From an uncultured virus (IMG/VR IMGVR_UViG_2831345111_000005) (lineage: Duplodnaviria > Heunggongvirae > Uroviricota > Caudoviricetes): a DNA stretch of 64,000 nt. Where the stretch lies: the IMG/VR virus record IMGVR_UViG_2831345111_000005; one strand, written 5' to 3'. The notes under the pieces were generated by a model. That model saw only the letters and a program-made list of their open reading frames with translations. It was not told the DNA's origin and did not search any database. Position numbers and translations under genes: made by a program. Position 1 is the first letter of the stretch. Every line of letters begins with the position of its first letter. Of this stretch, positions 14,445-63,576 are shown piece by piece.

Positions 14445-15884
14445 CTACTTGAGCTTGGCTAGTCGCTTCCCACCAATCCAGCGGATGTGGCACCAGGACA
14501 TCATGGCGCTGATGAGCCAGGCCATCCCGACCATCACCACCCCATTTACCATCAGGTCCGTCACGTCCACAGCCTGGTTGGACCCCAAGCCCTTCCATAA
14601 AAGGACAACGGATGTAATAGCCAAAAACAGAAGAAGCCAGGTCGACTTGATGGCGGATTTCATCTGCTTCAGCGAAAGTAGCGCGCGTAACAGATATTCA
14701 GGCTGCAGCGCTTTGGCCAACTTATCCGACAGCGGTGCTAAGTCGGCCGCGACATGGAAGGATGCTGGGGCATGTTCGACGGCTTGCTGATGCACTTCCG
14801 ATTGCATGAAGCTCCTTCCAGCGCCCGCCAGGCCAAACATCTTCTTGATATTGAAAATTGAGAATGACAGCAAGGTCAGCTCCAGCGCCTCGAGGTCAGG
14901 GGTGACCAGTTGTTCTACCAGGGTTCCGGCGTCGGCGATTGCGCACTTGTTGCCATAGACCACCATCTTGGAGGTCTCGCTGGATACGGTCACATCGCTC
15001 TTGTAGACCTTGGTAGAGAAGGTTGCTTGCTCGGTAACGCAGCGTCTTGGCTCATCCCGAACAACGTCCCGATGGAGCAATGTTGCTACAGAATTAACTA
15101 CTGTCGGCAGGTCAGCACGAACAGTGAGCGCATAGGTCACATCGGCGTCATCTACGTTTATCGATACGACTTTGTAATCAGGCTTGAGAAAGTATTCGGC
15201 CTCTGCCACATTGGTGAAACGGCCATGACCTCCACAATCACCGCAGGTGAGCTTCCCTCGACCGCGGCAAGTGTTGCAAGTCATCCTGCCGGTGGTATCG
15301 CAATACATACAAGCTTCTCTGCGATGGCCTGTCTGAGCGTGACCGTTCGAATCATAGGTAGTGATGGTTCGCGTTTGATACCCTGTGCCATAACACCAGG
15401 AGCAAGACTGCTTACGGGTTCCATTGCAATAAGTGCAGTTATATTCCCCATCGCCGTAACAACGAGCGCAGGTGTAAGTTCGAATCACCCGCTTTGAATA
15501 ATGTCCGACCTTCTTTTGGTCGCGATAAGCGCCGTAGCCCTCCTGAACAATTTGAGGGGCGAGGTTGGCAAGAATGTTCGGATTATTTACCGCTTCTGAG
15601 ATGAGGCTGGTAACCGTAGCGTCGTACTCACCCGCAGATTGCACCACATAATCACCAGGATTCGCTTCGACAATACCGGTGTAGGTAGAGTGATTGGTGC
15701 CCATTTGAAGGACATGGCGGACTCTTACCTCGAATGTGACGTCGAGACAATTGTCACTGCTAAAGCTAACATTTTCTGGCTCAAAGCGAGTGGAGCGCTG
15801 GATGAACCGTTGAATTTCCTTGCGCGCTAAGCCGGCATATTCATCTTTTGTTTCAGTATCAGCTGCTACCACTTCGTTTTTCAT
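14445..15884 (-). CDS. membrane protein with DnaJ-type CxxCxGxG zinc-finger repeats
   Basis: Six CxxC(xGxG)-type motifs; two C-terminal hydrophobic helices. Confidence 0.7.
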   Translation of the reverse strand: MKNEVVAADTETKDEYAGLARKEIQRFIQRSTRFEPENVSFSSDNCLDVTFEVRVRHVLQMGTNHSTYTGIVEANPGDYVVQSAGEYDATVTSLISEAVNNPNILANLAPQIVQEGYGAYRDQKKVGHYSKRVIRTYTCARCYGDGEYNCTYCNGTRKQSCSWCYGTGYQTRTITTYDSNGHAQTGHRREACMYCDTTGRMTCNTCRGRGKLTCGDCGGHGRFTNVAEAEYFLKPDYKVVSINVDDADVTYALTVRADLPTVVNSVATLLHRDVVRDEPRRCVTEQATFSTKVYKSDVTVSSETSKMVVYGNKCAIADAGTLVEQLVTPDLEALELTLLSFSIFNIKKMFGLAGAGRSFMQSEVHQQAVEHAPASFHVAADLAPLSDKLAKALQPEYLLRALLSLKQMKSAIKSTWLLLFLAITSVVLLWKGLGSNQAVDVTDLMVNGVVMVGMAWLISAMMSWCHIRWIGGKRLAKLK

Positions 15885-16382: not shown

Positions 16383-16419
16383 GTTTTGTCCTTTGAAAAA
16401 AACAAAAGCCCCAGTTAAG

Positions 16420-16735
16420 GGGCCTCTGTGAAGGAATTGCTTAACAAGGCTCCTTCAAACCCCGGCTTGGTCAAGCGACCAGGCGATAAGATTCGTCGTT
16501 TGCGAATACTTTTTTGCTACTTCATGGCACAAGTGCCGCAGTGTTCGCCTACTGCCGTTGCCGCCTTCATCTCCCAACGCTGTCGAAGCCTGGCGCCCCC
16601 GTCAGAAGAGTTGTTAGGTTAGTAGGCCATTCCAGTATTAGTGGACATCCGGCAAACCGACAGCTCTTTTGGTGGAGGCGGGGGGAATCGAACCCCCTTC
16701 CAACGCCGTTTAACTCCAGAGGAATTACAACGATT
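16420..16735 (-). ncRNA. ssrA: circularly permuted two-piece tmRNA. Acceptor piece ~16735-16670, intervening segment 16669-16601, coding piece 16600-~16420
   Basis: The 3' end GGGGGTTCGATTCCCCCCGCCTCCACCA is transcribed before the 5' end GGGGGCGCCAGGCTTCGAC; 7-bp acceptor with G3-U70; tag ORF 16503-16471 = ANDESYRLVA*; adjacent to smpB. Outer ends approximate. Confidence 0.9.
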
Positions 16736-16855
16736 CAAGCAGTATATACAAAATAGACAGTTTTGTCAATAACTATTTCTATACTTAACAATCCATCCCT
16801 CTTAATCTTACCCATGTTCACTTCGCGCGCAGGCTCTGATACTAAATCCTCAAGC

Positions 16856-52744: not shown

Positions 52745-53608
52745 TCCCGCATGGGGGTGATAGCTGCAGTGATGCAGTCAAAGCGAGGTAGCCCACTAAC
52801 TCGCGCCTGTCCGCAAACAGGTCAATCCATGCAAGCCTCCCTGGCGCCGTGAGGCGCGCTTCGCTGACAAGAGCGGCGGAGCTAGGGGTAAAGCGTGTGG
52901 ATGGGAAAGAACTTTGCCTTACGGGCCGGCCTTACGGCTGGGAACCCGTGGTATTGAACAGCAGCGGGTGGTGCCGCGGTCCAGCCAAACCAAACACGTT
53001 AATCCGGACGGGAAAGGGTAGCGTTGTTGTCGTAGATGCCCTCAATGGCGACAACGCAGATTTAAGGGTAATGGCATAGGCCCCGCTGGGACCATGACAG
53101 AATCCTGAAAATCGGTTGAGTATCCGGCAGGAGAAAGACATGCTGCGAAGCGTATTCTGTGTCTCAAAAGGACATGGAGCGTTTGGACACGCTCGCGGCG
53201 GTGGGTTGCAATAGCTCAATTGGAAGAGCGTCAGAATTGATAATCTGAAGGCTGTGGATTCGAACTCCACTCGCATTTAAACGCAAAGTCGTGTCCGACA
53301 GCACATGAAAGTGGCTTAATTCTGCCCACGGCGACGTGAAGGCAGACATCCAAAGCTCGCAAAGCTGAGGGTGTTGATTGGAATCCGCACGTAGAGGCTG
53401 CAACCTCGAACGGCTCGCAAGGTCGGCGGTAGGACGATAATCGAGTAGTGTGTTGTGTCATGGAGGAAGCCTTCCTTGGCGAAAGCCTAAAACGGCAGCC
53501 ACGGTGCCCGACTCCTTTGAGGGGTGGATAAGCCAGAAACGCTGGGACGCAAGCCCGGCGATAACCTGAGCGAACGGGGTGCTATTAAAGCTGTAATCTC
53601 AAGCTTTT
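52745..53608 (+). ncRNA. GOLLD-like large ncRNA (5' boundary uncertain) with an embedded tRNA-Ile(GAU)-like module at ~53205-53278
   Basis: ~0.9 kb with no credible ORF and dense hairpins, inside a tRNA array, with an embedded tRNA. 3' motif order CTCGCAAGG..CGAGTAGTG..CTAAAAC..GTGGATAAG..GAAAC..CTGTAATCTCAAGC resembles the GOLLD 3' domain as I recall it; not verified by a covariance-model search. Confidence 0.65.
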
Positions 53609-54935: not shown

Positions 54936-55850
54936 ATGCCTAAATTTAACAAGATATTTGTTGCCTCACTGCTCTCGCTTTTTGCGTGCGCAGCCATCCC
55001 TGCCACTTGGGGGGTCGTAAAAAATGTTGGCTCAGCCAACATGACCTGGCATGCTGTTTCGTCAGGCAATACAGCAAATCTTACCTGGCATAAGCTAGGC
55101 TCTATTACTTGCACCTTCTCCAATAAGGTTACCTTTACAGCAAACACGTCCTGGACGGTTCCGGGGACAGGCTGCGGAACTATACGCGTGAAAGCCTGGG
55201 GAGCTGGAGGTAATGGTGGTGCCTTCAATTATTATGGCGGCGGCGGCGGATTTGGTCAGGCAGATGTACCTGCCCCCGCAGGCTCAACCCTATTGGTTGC
55301 TGTCGGGGGTGGTGCCAAATACCTTGCTGGGGCATCTGCTGGCGGTACTAATGGAGGGGGCGGTAGTTCCTCGAACACCTCAACTGGAGGTGGAGGTTAT
55401 TCTGGGGTATTTAAGAATAATTCAGCCTCCCAAGCTAATGCATTGGTCATGGCTGGGGGTGGCGGGGGTGGCGTTCTTGCTGCGGGTGGTGCGGGAGGTG
55501 GCTCTGCTGGTGCGGCAGGTGGTGGGTCAAGTTGTGGGGGAGGCGGAACACAATCTGGAGGAGGTGGCTCAGGTGGGTCTATGGGCTCTGCTGGGTCTGC
55601 TCTCCAAGGCGGTAGTGGGCTCTCAAATCTATCGGGGGCAGGAGGCGGTGGCGGCTATTTCGGCGGGGGCGCTGGCTATGCAGGTGGCGGCGGTTCTGGC
55701 TATATCGTCCCCGGGGCGTCTAACTCAAGACTACTGAATGGCTCCGGTTCGGCTGTAGCTAATTCAGGAGATACGGACTACGTCGCAGGAAAGGGGAACG
55801 GGGTTCAAGCCACAAACGCTCAGCCTGGATATGTTGTAATATACTATTAA
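54936..55850 (+). CDS. secreted glycine-rich protein (adhesin/fibre-like)
   Basis: Signal peptide, TWHKLG, WTVP...RVKAWGAGG, Gly-rich body, C-term GYVVIYY. Confidence 0.75.
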   Translation: MPKFNKIFVASLLSLFACAAIPATWGVVKNVGSANMTWHAVSSGNTANLTWHKLGSITCTFSNKVTFTANTSWTVPGTGCGTIRVKAWGAGGNGGAFNYYGGGGGFGQADVPAPAGSTLLVAVGGGAKYLAGASAGGTNGGGGSSSNTSTGGGGYSGVFKNNSASQANALVMAGGGGGGVLAAGGAGGGSAGAAGGGSSCGGGGTQSGGGGSGGSMGSAGSALQGGSGLSNLSGAGGGGGYFGGGAGYAGGGGSGYIVPGASNSRLLNGSGSAVANSGDTDYVAGKGNGVQATNAQPGYVVIYY

Positions 55851-56646: not shown

Positions 56647-56698
56647 CTAAATACCAGGATGTTTCCTATACATCCTAGTATTTTACTTGGGTATTCTT

Positions 56699-57601
56699 AT
56701 GCGTTACTTTGCAAAACTCATGTTGGGCATTTTGGCCGCTATGTCATGTGCGGCCTCGGCGGCTGTATGGTCACCAATTTCAAGCTTCACTGCGGCGAAT
56801 AAATGGAACGGCATCTGCGTAACTTCTGGAGCGGCGAACACTTGGCACAAGCTGGGCCCCTGTTCTGCCTATGATATTGCGCTTACAGTAAGTTCCAACC
56901 AAACAAATTACAACGTCAGAACCGCAGCTATTGCCGCTGGATGGGACGGAGTCACCCCGGTCAGTGTGGGCGTCACCATCAATAGTGGTGTTGTTATCTC
57001 CTCATCAACGACAAGCACTGCGGCATTTGTATCTGGGTCATTCCCGGCTGGAAGTTCGCTCACCATCGCTAATAGCGGTCGTATTGAAGGCCGGGGCGGT
57101 AATGGGGGTAAAGGTGGGGGGCTTGGAGGCGCAGGCTCTGCGGGGGGAGCTGGAGGTGCGGCAGTTAGCGTTACCGTTCCAACGACCATTAATAACATCG
57201 GAACCATTTATGGGGGAGGTGGAGGTGGCGGTGGCGGACAAGTCGCAGGCACACACCTTAACTCTGGTGGCGGCGGTGGTGGTGGCGGTGTAGGGGTCTC
57301 ATCCGGTGGAGCTGGCGGTACAGGCGCTGCAGCGGGCGCTTCATCAGGAGCGGGCGGAACAATTTCAGCTGCTGGCGCAGGTGGCGCCGGAGGTAATAAC
57401 GGCGGGGGTTACATCGGCGGAAGCGGAGGTGCTGGCGGCGGTTATGGAGCAGCCGGGGCATCCGGCGGAACAGCATCAACCACTGGGCCATACGGCCCCT
57501 ATGCGGGTGGTGCTGCAGGTGCTGCCGTACAGGCTAATGGATATACGCTGACCTGGACGTCCGGGAATAATTCCACCCAGGTTAAAGGCCCGATTCAATG
57601 A
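56699..57601 (+). CDS. secreted glycine-rich protein (adhesin/fibre-like), related to 54936-55850
   Basis: Signal peptide, TWHKLG, N.G.I.G.GG.GG motifs, Gly-rich body. Confidence 0.75.
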   Translation: MRYFAKLMLGILAAMSCAASAAVWSPISSFTAANKWNGICVTSGAANTWHKLGPCSAYDIALTVSSNQTNYNVRTAAIAAGWDGVTPVSVGVTINSGVVISSSTTSTAAFVSGSFPAGSSLTIANSGRIEGRGGNGGKGGGLGGAGSAGGAGGAAVSVTVPTTINNIGTIYGGGGGGGGGQVAGTHLNSGGGGGGGGVGVSSGGAGGTGAAAGASSGAGGTISAAGAGGAGGNNGGGYIGGSGGAGGGYGAAGASGGTASTTGPYGPYAGGAAGAAVQANGYTLTWTSGNNSTQVKGPIQ

Positions 57602-57710: not shown

Positions 57711-57737
57711 TCTTAATTGTTCGTTTTGGTACTAATA

Positions 57738-58268
57738 ATGCGCATATTTTACGATACCGAATTCACGTCTCTGTCAGCAGCGGCCGAACTTATTTCCGCT
57801 GGATTCGTCACCGAACACGGGCAAGAGTTCTACATTGAGTTCGATGGCATTGCAAAGTCCGAGTGTTCGGACTTTGTACTCGAAATCGTCTACCCGATGC
57901 TACGCGCACCTGGCGTTATCGTCAGCTCTCCCTTGATGGCCGCCCAGCACATCATCGACTGGCTCGCTGCTCAAGCTGCGTATGTGCGGCTGGTCTCGGA
58001 CAACAATTATGACAGCTACTTGATGAGCAAACTGTTTCACAAACTGCTCGATTACAAGTCCAAAATAGAAGGTTACCGTCAAGAGGTTTCGCCCAATCTC
58101 AACATCAAATACGAACACCTAGGCTTTCCCGACTATGTGGCGGCAAAGGAATTTAAGAGGGCCTGTGAAGACTACTTCCTGGACCATCCTGACTGCCAAC
58201 ACCATGCGCTCCATGACGCCCGCTCACTCAAGCATGGGGTCATGCGAAGTGAGGGGTATTACTCTTGA
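57738..58268 (+). CDS. DEDDh 3'-5' exoribonuclease-like protein
   Basis: IFYDTEFT, LIS.G.V, FY, YD, HHALHDAR. Confidence 0.8.
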   Translation: MRIFYDTEFTSLSAAAELISAGFVTEHGQEFYIEFDGIAKSECSDFVLEIVYPMLRAPGVIVSSPLMAAQHIIDWLAAQAAYVRLVSDNNYDSYLMSKLFHKLLDYKSKIEGYRQEVSPNLNIKYEHLGFPDYVAAKEFKRACEDYFLDHPDCQHHALHDARSLKHGVMRSEGYYS

Positions 58269-58335
58269 CAATTTTAGCTATTTTTGCTACTATTTAGGCT
58301 CACGATACGCACTTGTTAACAAGTGGCGTTATCAA

Positions 58336-58629
58336 TTGTGCCATCGGGCGGTAGGCTTAGAAGCAGCCAGCTGGGCGAGACCCAGCAATCCGATAATGAG
58401 TGGTGATAGGCGCACGTGACCGTGGAGAGATTCACCCTGATGAATCCCACAGACCCGTGAGACTCGCGGGAACTGGAAGCAGGGCAAAGGCGAATGTTAC
58501 TGAAGGACCTGGTTGGGATGAGCATGAGACTCTTCCGGGTGAAGGAAGTCGCTTGGAAACAAGGTTGCTAGGGCGTAGCTCCCTGAAATGTCCAATAACC
58601 TTTAGCGTAGCAGCACACCTTTGGCACAA
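58336..58629 (+). ncRNA. ncRNA containing a split 23S rRNA L11-binding-domain (H43/H44) mimic
   Basis: GTAGGCTTAGAAGCAGCCA (58351-58369) and AGCGTAGCAGCACAC (58604-58618), closed by TTGTGCCA/TGGCACAA. Confidence 0.65.
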
Positions 58630-58634
58630 CAATT

Positions 58635-58712
58635 GGGCCTTAAGCTCATACGGTATGAGCACCCGACTCATAATCGGAAGGTACATGGGTTCGAACCCCT
58701 GAAGGCCCACCA
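58635..58712 (+). tRNA. tRNA(CAU), probably Ile2 (lysidine) type
   Basis: GGGCCTT/AAGGCCC, CCGA-CTCATAA-TCGG, ACCA. Confidence 0.8.
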
Positions 58713-58717
58713 CACAT

Positions 58718-58838
58718 GCTGGTGTGATGGAATCGGTAGACATATGCGGTGGCCACCCGGGCGTCAGAACCGGAGCACGAGCCTTCTCGGGAATCGGAGA
58801 GCCGCAGGCAATTGCGAGTTCGAGCCTCGCCACCAGCG
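58718..58838 (+). ncRNA. tRNA-like RNA (Leu-type D arm) with the anticodon loop replaced by a ~55-nt branched domain
   Basis: GCTGGTG/CACCAGC, TGCGG...CCGCA stem, T arm GCGAGTTCGAGCCTCGC. Confidence 0.7.
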
Positions 58839-59239: not shown

Positions 59240-59707
59240 ATGTCCTTACTTGATACCATCCAGGCAGCAAGTCTCTCGGCGCGAAAGGCTCGCAATACGG
59301 ACGAAGCTGCGTTACTGACAACCTTATTCGCTGAAGCTGCTCGCGTCGGCAAGGACGACGGCAATCGCGTGTCGACCGATGCTGAAGTTCAGGAAGTTGT
59401 GCGCAAGTTCATCAAGAACAACAACGACACCATCCAAGCTCTCTGGATTCCGGAGAAGATTGACTTGGACGAAGCCCGTGTGGCGCGCCGTACCAAGCTC
59501 CAGCTCGAGCAGGCTGTCCTGATGTCGTTCCTGCCTAAGCAAGCAGCGCCTGAAGAGCTGCAGGCCGCCGTAAGTGAGATTGTGGCCGCGCTGCCGGATA
59601 AGTCCACCAAGCACATGGGGGCTGTGATGGGCCAGCTTAACAAGCGCTTTGGCGCCAACTTCGACAAACGTTTCGCCAGTGAATTGGTGAAGCATGCGCT
59701 TCAGTAA
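59240..59707 (+). CDS. GatB/YqeY domain protein
   Basis: ARKARN..A.LL.TL..E, D.EV..V.RK.IK, E..VL..FLPKQ, MG.VMG.L. Confidence 0.85.
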   Translation: MSLLDTIQAASLSARKARNTDEAALLTTLFAEAARVGKDDGNRVSTDAEVQEVVRKFIKNNNDTIQALWIPEKIDLDEARVARRTKLQLEQAVLMSFLPKQAAPEELQAAVSEIVAALPDKSTKHMGAVMGQLNKRFGANFDKRFASELVKHALQ

Positions 59708-61362: not shown

Positions 61363-63576
61363 ATGCAATTCGTAAATCTGGAAGTAGGCACCTTGTATTT
61401 GACGTCAGGCTTGCCTGGCGCCGGCAAGTCCACGTGGCTGGGAAGCGGCAACATTTTACCCAGCATGATTCTATCTGCGGATGCAATTCGTGAGTCCGTG
61501 CTTGGCCATAAAATGGTCGGTGGCTTGAAGCATATTTTTCAGGACAGGAATGATGTTGTCTGGTCATTACTGAATCAAATCCTGGAAGTTCGCCTCAAGG
61601 AAAAGCTCACGACGTTCGTGGATGCAACGTTACTCAACGATGCTGAGCGTGAGCCTTTGGTGAAGCTCGCCCAGAAGCATGGCGTGAAAGTGGTAGTGCT
61701 GATTTTTGACCGCCCCTTTGACACGTGTATGGTGCAAAACATTTCCCGGCAAGACCGGGTCTCCGAGTATCGGATGAATGAGATGTCCAAGGAGTTTCAG
61801 CTGGACAGCATGTATCCGTTCGTGCGTGTGCCGGAATTCACGGTGCCTCGGTTGGTGTCTCGCGACCTGCCTGACACCAACTTCGATGTCATCGGGGATG
61901 TTCATGGCCTGCTTGACGACTTGAAGGTGTTGCTGGGCAAGCTCGGGTATTCCCTCGAGTCTGGTGTGCCCGTACATCCGCAGGGCCGTAAGCTGCTTTT
62001 CCTGGGTGACGTCGTTGACCGTGGGCCTCAATCCATTGAGACCTTGAAGTTCGTCCGCCAGGCTATAGCGGTTGGGCACTTGATGGTCGCAGGTAATCAT
62101 GAGCGCAAATTGCTGCAGTTCTGGGATTCACTCCAGACTGGGGCACCTCGCGCAAATTCTCCATCTGCTGCTGAAACGGCCATGGAGTTCATGAAGCTGC
62201 GTGAGGAAGAACAGCAGGCTTTGATTCAGTTTGTCCGAAACCTGCCTGGCTTCTACACTGTGACCGACGGGCCACTCCAGCTTGCGTTTGCGCATGCACC
62301 GCAGACGGCTTTTCATCCTTTCACGATTCTGCATTCTGAATGCCTGTATGGCGGGAATGAGTTGCCGGATTATGGCGATGAGGACGCCGACGGGATGTAT
62401 GCGGAGAGCTATCGCAGCGGCGAATCACGGCACATGCTTATCCATGGGCACATCCCGTTGACGAGTATGCATCATTGCGTGTTCTCACTGGACGCCCACC
62501 AAGCGTTTGCCGGAAACATGCTGGCCTTGCGCCTGGATGGATTCTTGGCTGACTGTCGCGAAAAGATGGCTCAAGAGGCCTTCAATGACAATCTCGTTTC
62601 CCAAAAGTGCGAGTTTGACTTCGACGTACACAGCGCCAAGTTTGAACTGAAGCGTTCGCTGGATAAGCTGAAGACCGCCAAGATGGTGACCGTGCAAACG
62701 GAGCCGTCGGCCGGCCTATCGCTCTACAAGTATTCGAAGCGTGTGTTTTTCGATGCATTGTGGGGTGAGAGCCCTTATCTCCTGAAGGCTCGCGGTATCG
62801 TGCTTGACCTGGCTGGAAACATTGTCGTGCATCCGTTCGACAAGGTGTTTAACTATGGTGAAAACGGTGCCGGTCTCGATATCGCAGACGACCATCCGGT
62901 CTACGCGGTTGAGAAGATGAATGGCTTCCTAGGCTGCATCAGTCGCCATCCTTGGAAGAATGAACTGCTGGTGACGAGCTCCGGGTCATTCGACTCGCCG
63001 TTCGTTGACTACATCAAGTCGTTCATCACGCCGGCATTGAAGGGGCTGCTCCTCTCGTACTTCTCGCGCAACAACGTGACGCTCATGTTCGAGGTTCTGC
63101 ATCCGGAAGACCCGCACATCATCCAGTACCGGCCGCAAGACATGGGCCTTTGGTTGATTGGTGGGCGAGGTAAGGAGCAGGGCGCTGAGCCGATAACGGA
63201 AGATGAGTTGGACGAAATCGGGTTGATGTTGACCGTGAATCGTCCGGAGTGGTTCTACACGTCGTTCGGGCAGCTGAAGGAAAAGGTGGCCACCTCCCGA
63301 CTGGAAGGCTATATGGTTCGGGATGCGAAGTCACACAAGACGCTCTTGAAGTTCAAGACGCCTTATTACCTTGTGACCAAGTTCCTCGGCCGTATGAGCG
63401 ACACCAAGGTACGGCACATGTTCTGTCATCCTAAGGGATTCAAGAAGGACATCGATGAGGAGTTCTACCCGTTGGTCGACCACCTGGTCACCACAACCTC
63501 GGAGACTGACTTCTTGGCGCTGCCGGATACAGAACGTGTAGTCCTGGTGCGAGACGCAATTCAAGCACTGCGCTAA
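61363..63576 (+). CDS. polynucleotide kinase-metallophosphatase-RNA ligase (Rnl1-like) fusion for RNA repair
   Basis: GLPGAGKST + VDAT kinase; GDVHG/GDVVDRG/GNHE/HGH phosphoesterase; ARG..PFDKVFN, EKMNG, FE, EGY, K.K ligase motifs. Confidence 0.9.
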   Translation: MQFVNLEVGTLYLTSGLPGAGKSTWLGSGNILPSMILSADAIRESVLGHKMVGGLKHIFQDRNDVVWSLLNQILEVRLKEKLTTFVDATLLNDAEREPLVKLAQKHGVKVVVLIFDRPFDTCMVQNISRQDRVSEYRMNEMSKEFQLDSMYPFVRVPEFTVPRLVSRDLPDTNFDVIGDVHGLLDDLKVLLGKLGYSLESGVPVHPQGRKLLFLGDVVDRGPQSIETLKFVRQAIAVGHLMVAGNHERKLLQFWDSLQTGAPRANSPSAAETAMEFMKLREEEQQALIQFVRNLPGFYTVTDGPLQLAFAHAPQTAFHPFTILHSECLYGGNELPDYGDEDADGMYAESYRSGESRHMLIHGHIPLTSMHHCVFSLDAHQAFAGNMLALRLDGFLADCREKMAQEAFNDNLVSQKCEFDFDVHSAKFELKRSLDKLKTAKMVTVQTEPSAGLSLYKYSKRVFFDALWGESPYLLKARGIVLDLAGNIVVHPFDKVFNYGENGAGLDIADDHPVYAVEKMNGFLGCISRHPWKNELLVTSSGSFDSPFVDYIKSFITPALKGLLLSYFSRNNVTLMFEVLHPEDPHIIQYRPQDMGLWLIGGRGKEQGAEPITEDELDEIGLMLTVNRPEWFYTSFGQLKEKVATSRLEGYMVRDAKSHKTLLKFKTPYYLVTKFLGRMSDTKVRHMFCHPKGFKKDIDEEFYPLVDHLVTTTSETDFLALPDTERVVLVRDAIQALR

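Follow-up and report, generated by a model that had tools for sequence, protein, structure and literature searches.

A predicted RNA of phages and megaplasmids that mimics the uL11-binding domain of 23S rRNA

The window analyzed here, a DNA stretch of 64,000 nucleotides, harbors at 58336..58629 on the plus strand a predicted non-coding RNA of ~294 nt, which mapping and comparison with homologous copies identify as a mimic of 23S rRNA helices 42-44. The RNA family to which it belongs is real, widespread and apparently undescribed, and the support for its fold is unusually strong for a comparative prediction. Covariation shows that selection acts on this free-standing gene family to maintain the fold of the uL11-binding domain, at the secondary as well as the tertiary level; the kink-turn used by uL10 is absent. 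We lean, by a modest degree, towards the view that a ribosome domain has been domesticated by phages and megaplasmids as a trans-acting mini GTPase-associated centre, which would bind uL11, disarm stress or defence signalling that runs through the ribosome (RelA, or toxins directed at helices 43-44) and carry an exchangeable cargo domain at one fixed site.

The element contains the complete uL11-binding domain in three pieces

Position numbering was taken from E. coli rrlB. The 58-nt uL11-binding domain of 23S rRNA (E. coli 1051-1108) is complete in 58336-58629, where it is present as three pieces, and all 58 rRNA positions map in order onto the element. Its first part (58336-58350, equivalent to 1044-1058) comprises the 5' strand of a plain closing helix (1044-1055, without kink-turn 42) followed by 1056-1058. 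Positions 1059-1077 (58351-58369) form helix 43, which includes U1060, the A1067 loop and the triple bases G1071 and C1072. After A1077 an optional insert of 19 nt (insert 1, 58370-58388), which forms a 6-bp hairpin, precedes the equivalents of 1078-1090 (58389-58401), in which A1088 is kept. Insert 2 (58402-58604, 203 nt) lies between U1090 and G1091 and consists of a closing stem that begins directly after U1090 (58402 onward pairs with 58600 backward), a branched structured domain and a 4-nt linker (58601-58604). It is followed by 1091-1103 (58605-58617), corresponding to helix 44 with the A1095 loop and a family-specific A1101, and by the 3' strand of the closing helix (1104-1115, 58618-58629). 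All parts lie on the plus strand.

A sequence-only reading had placed two rRNA motifs at 58351-58369 and 58604-58618, in this order, and sequence inspection confirmed both. The 8-bp stem 58336-58343/58622-58629 that it described is likewise present and extends helix 42 in register. It had further proposed that the domain is split by one insertion of ~230 nt; the split is real, but the spacer consists of the two inserts of 19 and 203 nt. The middle part, 1078-1090 at 58389-58401, had been missed. Moreover, A58604, the first base of the second motif as placed there, does not correspond to rRNA A1090 but is the last linker base, and position 1090 is U58401.

The core is identical to the host 23S rRNA, which sits on another contig, at 40 of 58 positions. 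In the window copy C1057-G1081 and A1082-U1086 are compensatory with respect to the host 23S rRNA, and G1058-C1080 with respect to E. coli. The 19-mer at 58351-58369 is unique in the genome apart from the host 23S rRNA, where it occurs with one mismatch, and the match is therefore not due to chance. As had been claimed, no other rRNA was detected in an Rfam scan of the 64-kb window. No Rfam family covers the element at E-values up to 10, and an LSU rRNA gene was rejected, since extended homology to RF02541 at the gathering score was not found. The expectation that an Rfam search would give partial LSU matches only was borne out for 9 of 20 homologous loci, all below threshold (17-33 bits versus 50), but not for the window copy, which gave none.

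Upstream of the element a sigma-70-like promoter is predicted by consensus match only (58265..58293, plus strand), with TTGACA at 58265, as noted before, a 17-nt spacer, TACTAT ending at 58293 and an extended TG. It matches the consensus at 10 of 12 positions and extends over the stop codon of the ORF that precedes it. One such site was found in 1.7 kb with 1.3 expected by chance, thus the promoter is weak evidence on its own. Within the presumed 5' leader, 16 nt at 58310..58325 (plus strand) form a palindrome or hairpin according to self-match and folding. The tRNA that had been reported just downstream as tRNA-Ile2 was recovered 5 nt after the RNA (58635..58709, plus strand) by Rfam, and by ARAGORN only at a relaxed threshold; its CAU anticodon would suit Ile2 or Met.

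Copies are found in phages, megaplasmids and bacterial assemblies

With a strict parse, at least 256 distinct copies were obtained from 479 examined loci, which include many duplicates and some chance matches. Phage contigs contribute members, as do cultured jumbo phages, bacterial assemblies and one further megaplasmid. Unannotated members were found in Serratia phage BF, Xanthomonas phages XacN1 and XaC1, Aeromonas phage 4_4572, Acinetobacter phage ME3, Yersinia phage fHe-Yen9-04 and a 910-kb Pseudomonas plasmid. Matches to full-length members were obtained for GAP32 and CBB. A Vibrio phage and the Pseudomonas putida phage pf16, whose copy sits between tRNA-Asn and tRNA-Pro, showed the 5' module and the middle one, whereas the 3' module was not matched by the search pattern. 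In a scan of viral contigs at least 118 loci matched the 5' 19-mer, and nearly all of them have the middle and 3' modules downstream. The 3' motif alone gave 54 matches in the genome collection, 34 of which are preceded by a 5' module that deviates at no more than 4 positions, and at least 120 loci in viral contigs, of which 89 of those listed could be parsed. Both halves are thus kept among homologues.

The closest relatives of the window copy are locus L193 (identical in sequence to L508) and loci L504-L507. When the window copy was used as blastn query, nothing was obtained in the phage collection and one chance match in plasmids. Against 60 related genomes it gave only matches of 19-26 nt, mostly at the rRNA motif. 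In 400 genomes from the order to which the host belongs, the 3' motif was matched 6 times, never together with a 5' module, and no other member was found. One locus holds two tandem copies of the RNA with one tRNA between them (L068:1501-2060).

At least six stand-alone copies lack any insert (L030, L080, L547, L548, L554 and L559). Of the 19 matches in the scan for insert-less copies, 11 were set aside as belonging to a distinct family or arising by chance, and 2 as rRNA fragments. In L080 rRNA-like bases are kept upstream, but a plain helix replaces kink-turn 42, as if it had been captured recently. The insert-less copies, one of them with such rRNA-like flanking bases, suggest repeated capture from 23S rRNA. 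A match in Paenibacillus phage Pd_22F was dropped as a true rRNA fragment. The two abundant and highly transcribed non-coding RNAs described for phage PA5oct (PMC7318152) are not family members (L321:1264-1499 and 14952-15402). A different conserved viral element, which has an inverted repeat and lacks a helix-43 module, matched the insert-less pattern by chance in viral contigs (L546, L549, L550, L552, L553, L555-L558, L561, L563 and L564).

Covariation supports an rRNA-like secondary structure

Base pairing was analyzed in 114 copies that are non-redundant by insert, from which weaker second parses in L075 and L156 were left out. The pair 1058-1080 was formed in 97% of the copies, compared to 41% in shuffles, with a mutual information (MI) of 1.53 against a shuffle maximum of 0.16. 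The pair 1082-1086 was formed in 89% (MI 0.95), and the closing-helix pairs of 1050-1055 with 1104-1109 in 87-96%. In addition, an alignment of 65 rows was scored for 20 rRNA-derived pairs and 4 insert pairs. It contained the window copy, whose row is partly misaligned because of its extra hairpin, and 64 copies chosen for an insert of 60-135 nt and the absence of insert 1, of which 20 were U1072 variants. In this alignment 93.7% of the cells pair, versus 66.1% in shuffles and 34-57% with slid partners, and 498 double-change cells were counted, versus 170 in shuffles and at most 122 with slid partners. Covariation was thereby obtained for the top of helix 42, helix 43, the 1082-1086 pair and the helix 44 pairing of the uL11-binding fold.

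Folding calculations did not favour this core thermodynamically, as the rRNA-like constrained fold of the window copy has -90.8 kcal/mol compared to -106.0 kcal/mol for the minimum free energy structure. The RNAalifold consensus of a 7-row subfamily also pairs the core differently from rRNA. The uL11-binding domain depends on non-canonical contacts, Mg2+ and uL11, all of which are omitted by nearest-neighbour folding models.

These data also bear on whether the element is an assembly chimera or the non-functional leftover of a 23S rRNA gene that had been captured. Phage records do contain a few genuine rRNA fragments (L319, L551 and L562). However, flanking rRNA was absent from all of the 118 loci listed (118/118), none of which aligned with the host rRNA contig over more than 85 bases, and copies sit in finished genomes of cultured phages. 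The insert, which would have to align to 23S rRNA in a degenerate rRNA fragment, scored no better than shuffles: 17 of 100 shuffles scored as high against E. coli 23S rRNA and 37 of 100 against the host rRNA contig. Compensatory changes occur in secondary as well as tertiary pairs, and covariation refutes this origin, the chance of which we consider negligible. The earlier proposal of a stand-alone RNA mimicking the uL11-binding domain is hence strongly supported, as the insert does not align to rRNA and homologues keep both halves.

A base triple of the rRNA is exchanged as a unit

In rRNA, positions 1072, 1092 and 1099 form a base triple (PMC2952862, PMC8614978). In two cultured phages U1072 co-occurs with U1092-A1099, and given the known rRNA triple this co-occurrence was tested as a prediction. 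In a complete scan that fixed only U1072 (93 loci), all 66 distinct parsed copies, which fall into 34 insert clusters, have U1092; position 1099 is A in 56 of them and G in 10. A second complete scan fixed U1092-A1099 (76 loci, 63 distinct). Here 15 of the 63 distinct copies lacked a 5' module, and U1072 was found in 46 of the 48 with it. Overall the triple states of 256 copies are C·C-G in 169, U·U-A in 74, U·U·G in 10 and mixed in 3. Further exceptions are three related insert-less copies that combine U1072 with C1092-G1099. Since the triple switches as a unit, the tertiary fold is under selection. Among the C-type copies, relatives were found for twelve U-type inserts, which suggests that the triple was switched more than once.

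Further tertiary positions are conserved without covariation: U1060 in 117 of 117 copies, G1071 in 116 of 117 and A1088 in 70 of 70, and G1071·G1091-C1100 is retained. In the rRNA domain U1060 pairs with A1088.

The family keeps the uL11 site and drops the uL10 contact

The signature of kink-turn 42 (GA/GA at 1047-1048 and 1110-1111) was found in none of 174 copies. Kink-turn 42 is contacted by uL10 (PMC2952862). Several positions are relaxed in the 256 copies, with A1067 changed to G in 53, G1068 to A in 56, A1070 to G in 43 and A1096 to G in 48, while these four positions are invariant in the 150 matches listed of 285 rRNA matches in the host's phylum. A1067, a direct thiostrepton contact in the rRNA (PMC8614978), is kept in 200 of 256 copies and A1095 in 250 of 256; both are present in the window copy. 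Some invariant positions are fixed by the scan patterns or the parser, e.g. G1093, U1094, A1098 and A1101 in the set of 256. A1101 occurs in all inserted copies (parser-fixed in that set) and in 91 of 91 copies of the set found via the 5' module, there also within a restricted pattern, whereas in insert-less copies position 1101 is U or G.

The absence of kink-turn 42 together with the relaxation of A1067 suggests that the ligand is uL11 rather than uL10 or thiostrepton. Titration of the uL10-(bL12)n stalk complex, or a sponge for thiopeptide antibiotics, would agree with the conservation of the 1082-1086 loop, the three-way junction and A1095. Yet with kink-turn 42 absent from 174 of 174 copies and A1067 changed in 56 of 256, we regard either as very unlikely, and uL10 and thiostrepton, both named as possible ligands by the sequence-only reading, are now disfavoured.

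Insert 2 is variable in sequence and fixed in position

The length of insert 2 varies between 27 and 358 nt (median 143 nt), and insert 1 is also present in 19 of 256 copies. The inserts fall into 114 clusters without a shared core. The stem of insert 2 starts at the base after U1090, and its first pair is paired in 100% of the 114 non-redundant copies (MI 1.20). The linker reads TTTG in 147 of 177 copies and TTTA in 21. In the subfamily of the window copy compensatory change was observed in 21 of 68 predicted pairs. Two sub-motifs recur in inserts that are not otherwise related. A hairpin located 14-18 nt before the 3' end of the insert is found in 9 of 114 (L024, L029, L067, L070, L079, L099, L112, L170 and L222), whereas 5 of 114 share an internal-loop motif (L041, L089, L134, L173 and L176).

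This selected structure of the insert, with its conserved linker, recurring sub-motifs and an A1101 that goes along with it, would suit an RNA in which the compact rRNA fold, capped by uL11, serves as a scaffold, i.e. as a stability handle or an access to the translation machinery, while the variable insert acts as effector. On the other hand, 114 clusters spanning 27-358 nt share no core, the folding z-scores are modest (median -1.0, n=58) and at least six stand-alone copies manage without any insert, so that a scaffold role seems doubtful.

Group I introns start after U and end in G. As insert 2 begins after U and usually ends in G, it might be excised intron-like from a precursor, with a ligated mini-domain of 60-90 nt as the product, and both the insert-less copies and the RNA ligase genes on the contig fit this possibility. 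However, the terminal G is not invariant, as A takes its place in 21 of 177 copies, among them that of the window. Inserts down to 27 nt are too short for a ribozyme core, and no Rfam intron family scored in the window copy or in 20 homologous loci. A group I intron at L1090 was rejected on these grounds, and such a precursor is highly improbable.

The element resides in a tRNA array on a megaplasmid-like contig

ARAGORN detected 39 tRNA or tmRNA genes in the window, which together with the CAU tRNA found by Rfam make up a 40-tRNA array; a GOLLD RNA lies in the same array. Annotation of the contig (225 kb) was based on 46 ORFs of the window and 62 further ORFs. It encodes the F-type conjugation proteins TraC, TraF, TraH, TraN and TrbI, two coupling proteins, a weak TrfA match and an actin-like protein, as well as its own gyrase, DNA polymerase and ligase and a gene of the polyA/CCA polymerase family. 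From its gene content the contig reads as conjugative megaplasmid-like. The single uL11 gene and the RelA/SpoT genes of the host are all located on other contigs.

A Pnkp-like RNA-repair gene lies 2.7 kb downstream of the RNA in the window (61363-63576, plus strand) and encodes a kinase/phosphatase/RNA-ligase fusion. A YqeY protein (59240-59707) and a weak RNase AS-like exonuclease (57717-58268) are encoded on the same strand. Judged by these similarities, the three proteins in the tRNA array read as an RNA repair and processing kit.

Among 121 copies with full flanks, 79 have a tRNA on the same strand within 1 kb and about a third are without. A tRNA within 25 nt was found for 40 of 118 copies compared to 3 of 23 control loci, and those 3 look like members missed by the parser. 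No recurrent protein family beyond scattered HNH and GIY-YIG nucleases was detected among the 116 nearest ORFs, nor any ribosomal protein, which argues that the RNA is not the leader of one gene. The paired ends and the tRNA neighbours suggest that the RNA may be released from a tRNA precursor by normal processing. It would be co-transcribed with the tRNAs and freed by tRNA processing, and 5' processing of the downstream tRNA would set its 3' end. As covariation shows, the RNA folds as the uL11-binding domain of 23S rRNA with a plain closing helix and a variable structured domain branching at U1090/G1091.

A uL11-binding decoy is the preferred functional model

The RNA is probably expressed and likely binds host uL11 via its conserved helix-43 face, as judged from its conservation. 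Activation of RelA requires the N-terminus of uL11 (PMC4974054), and withdrawal of uL11 would therefore blunt (p)ppGpp synthesis. As a decoy the RNA would draw uL11 off ribosomes, the loss of uL11 would weaken RelA activation and lower the synthesis of (p)ppGpp, and translation and stable-RNA synthesis would not be shut down while the element runs its own tRNA set. A uL11-binding decoy that probably damps RelA activation is the explanation we prefer, although our confidence in it stays a little short of even. Cells without uL11 grow very poorly (PMC2175356), so that heavy titration would cost the element too. Since most uL11 is already ribosome-bound, the effect of a decoy would presumably be limited in a short lytic cycle. 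The decoy model would also leave unexplained why an insert of 27-358 nt occurs at one fixed site in nearly all copies and why A1095 is conserved in 250 of 256.

The RNA might instead be a decoy substrate, either for enzymes of the host or of competitors that attack the GTPase-associated centre or for sensors that read it; candidates are a Tre23-like ADP-ribosyltransferase and a ribotoxin directed against phages or plasmids. Binding of uL11 would then merely complete the mimic. Tre23 modifies helix 44 at 1095-1098 (PMC8661411), and the helix 44 loop is well kept, with G1093, U1094 and A1098 invariant but parser-fixed in addition to A1095. Furthermore, tRNA arrays have been proposed as anti-defence units (PMC12803027), and the Pnkp-like RNA-repair gene is close by. 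A toxin decoy should, however, resemble the host surface, yet 1067, 1068, 1070, 1096 and 1097 drift and the core retains only 40 of 58 host bases. The literature search gave no anti-phage toxin aimed at the helices 43-44 site. We therefore consider a toxin decoy rather unlikely. The uL11-binding decoy or, if it applies, the absorption of toxins would provide mobile elements with a direct route to switch off the stringent response or to neutralize ribosome-targeting toxins.

Relation to known RNAs

The element shares with 23S helices 42-44, which are part of RF02541, the same secondary structure, the 1082-1086 pair, U1060/A1088 and the 1072·1092-1099 triple. It differs from 23S rRNA in being free-standing on mobile elements, in lacking kink-turn 42, and in its branch at 1090/1091, A1101 and relaxed 1067 loop. 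Leaders of ribosomal-protein mRNAs (e.g. the uL1 site in the rplK-rplA leader) likewise mimic an rRNA protein-binding site (PMC10931766). Such leaders act in cis upstream of ribosomal-protein genes, whereas the element lies among tRNAs, has ends that pair with each other and imitates the site of uL11. A ribosomal-protein leader was excluded, since a tRNA follows in the window and there is no fixed downstream gene among the 116 ORFs. GOLLD and ROOL are also structured non-coding RNAs of phages and prophages near tRNA arrays (PMC5737381, PMC12286853). They are larger RNA-only cages, for which the accessible text of these sources describes no rRNA-derived domain, and the element matches neither Rfam model, so that identity with them was rejected. 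OLE RNA has been proposed to sequester the ribosomal protein bS21/RpsU (PMC12286853), but is unrelated in sequence and structure and is not a homologue of an rRNA domain.

No published description of the RNA family was found in the full-text literature, most subscription journals lying outside the search. The text of a huge-phage survey (PMC7162821) does not mention 23S or L11, nor does the accessible text, without supplement, of a screen that reported 224 motifs (PMC5737381). In a screen for viral structured RNAs no rRNA prediction overlapped the candidates (PMC10690425), and our motifs are absent from its 7 supplement files, although one half could be among the unnamed candidates in files 1-2. 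Genes for tRNAs, tmRNA and ribosomal proteins are known from phages, but we found no report of a working piece of rRNA as a phage's own gene. The family spans phages of several phyla as well as plasmids and is unannotated even in cultured jumbo phages. The domain is a classic model for RNA folding, and the hundreds of variants that nature supplies here reveal where it tolerates large insertions.

Further features of the window

A tRNA-like element with extended D and variable regions and a UCA anticodon, which would read UGA, is located at 58718-58837 (plus strand); it gave only a weak tRNA-Sec match (E 3.9) and was missed by ARAGORN at default settings. The GOLLD RNA (174.8 bits) lies at 53142-53605 on the plus strand and has an embedded tRNA (53205-53278) with an 8-nt anticodon loop. 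A plasmid-borne permuted tmRNA of the betaproteobacterial type with the tag ANDESYRLVA is encoded at 16402-16783 on the minus strand. Finally, three glycine-rich, secreted-looking proteins were noticed (54936-55850 and 56687-57601 in the window, and L495:5020-5943), one of which matches the phage adhesin Gp38 although the contig is of conjugative plasmid type.
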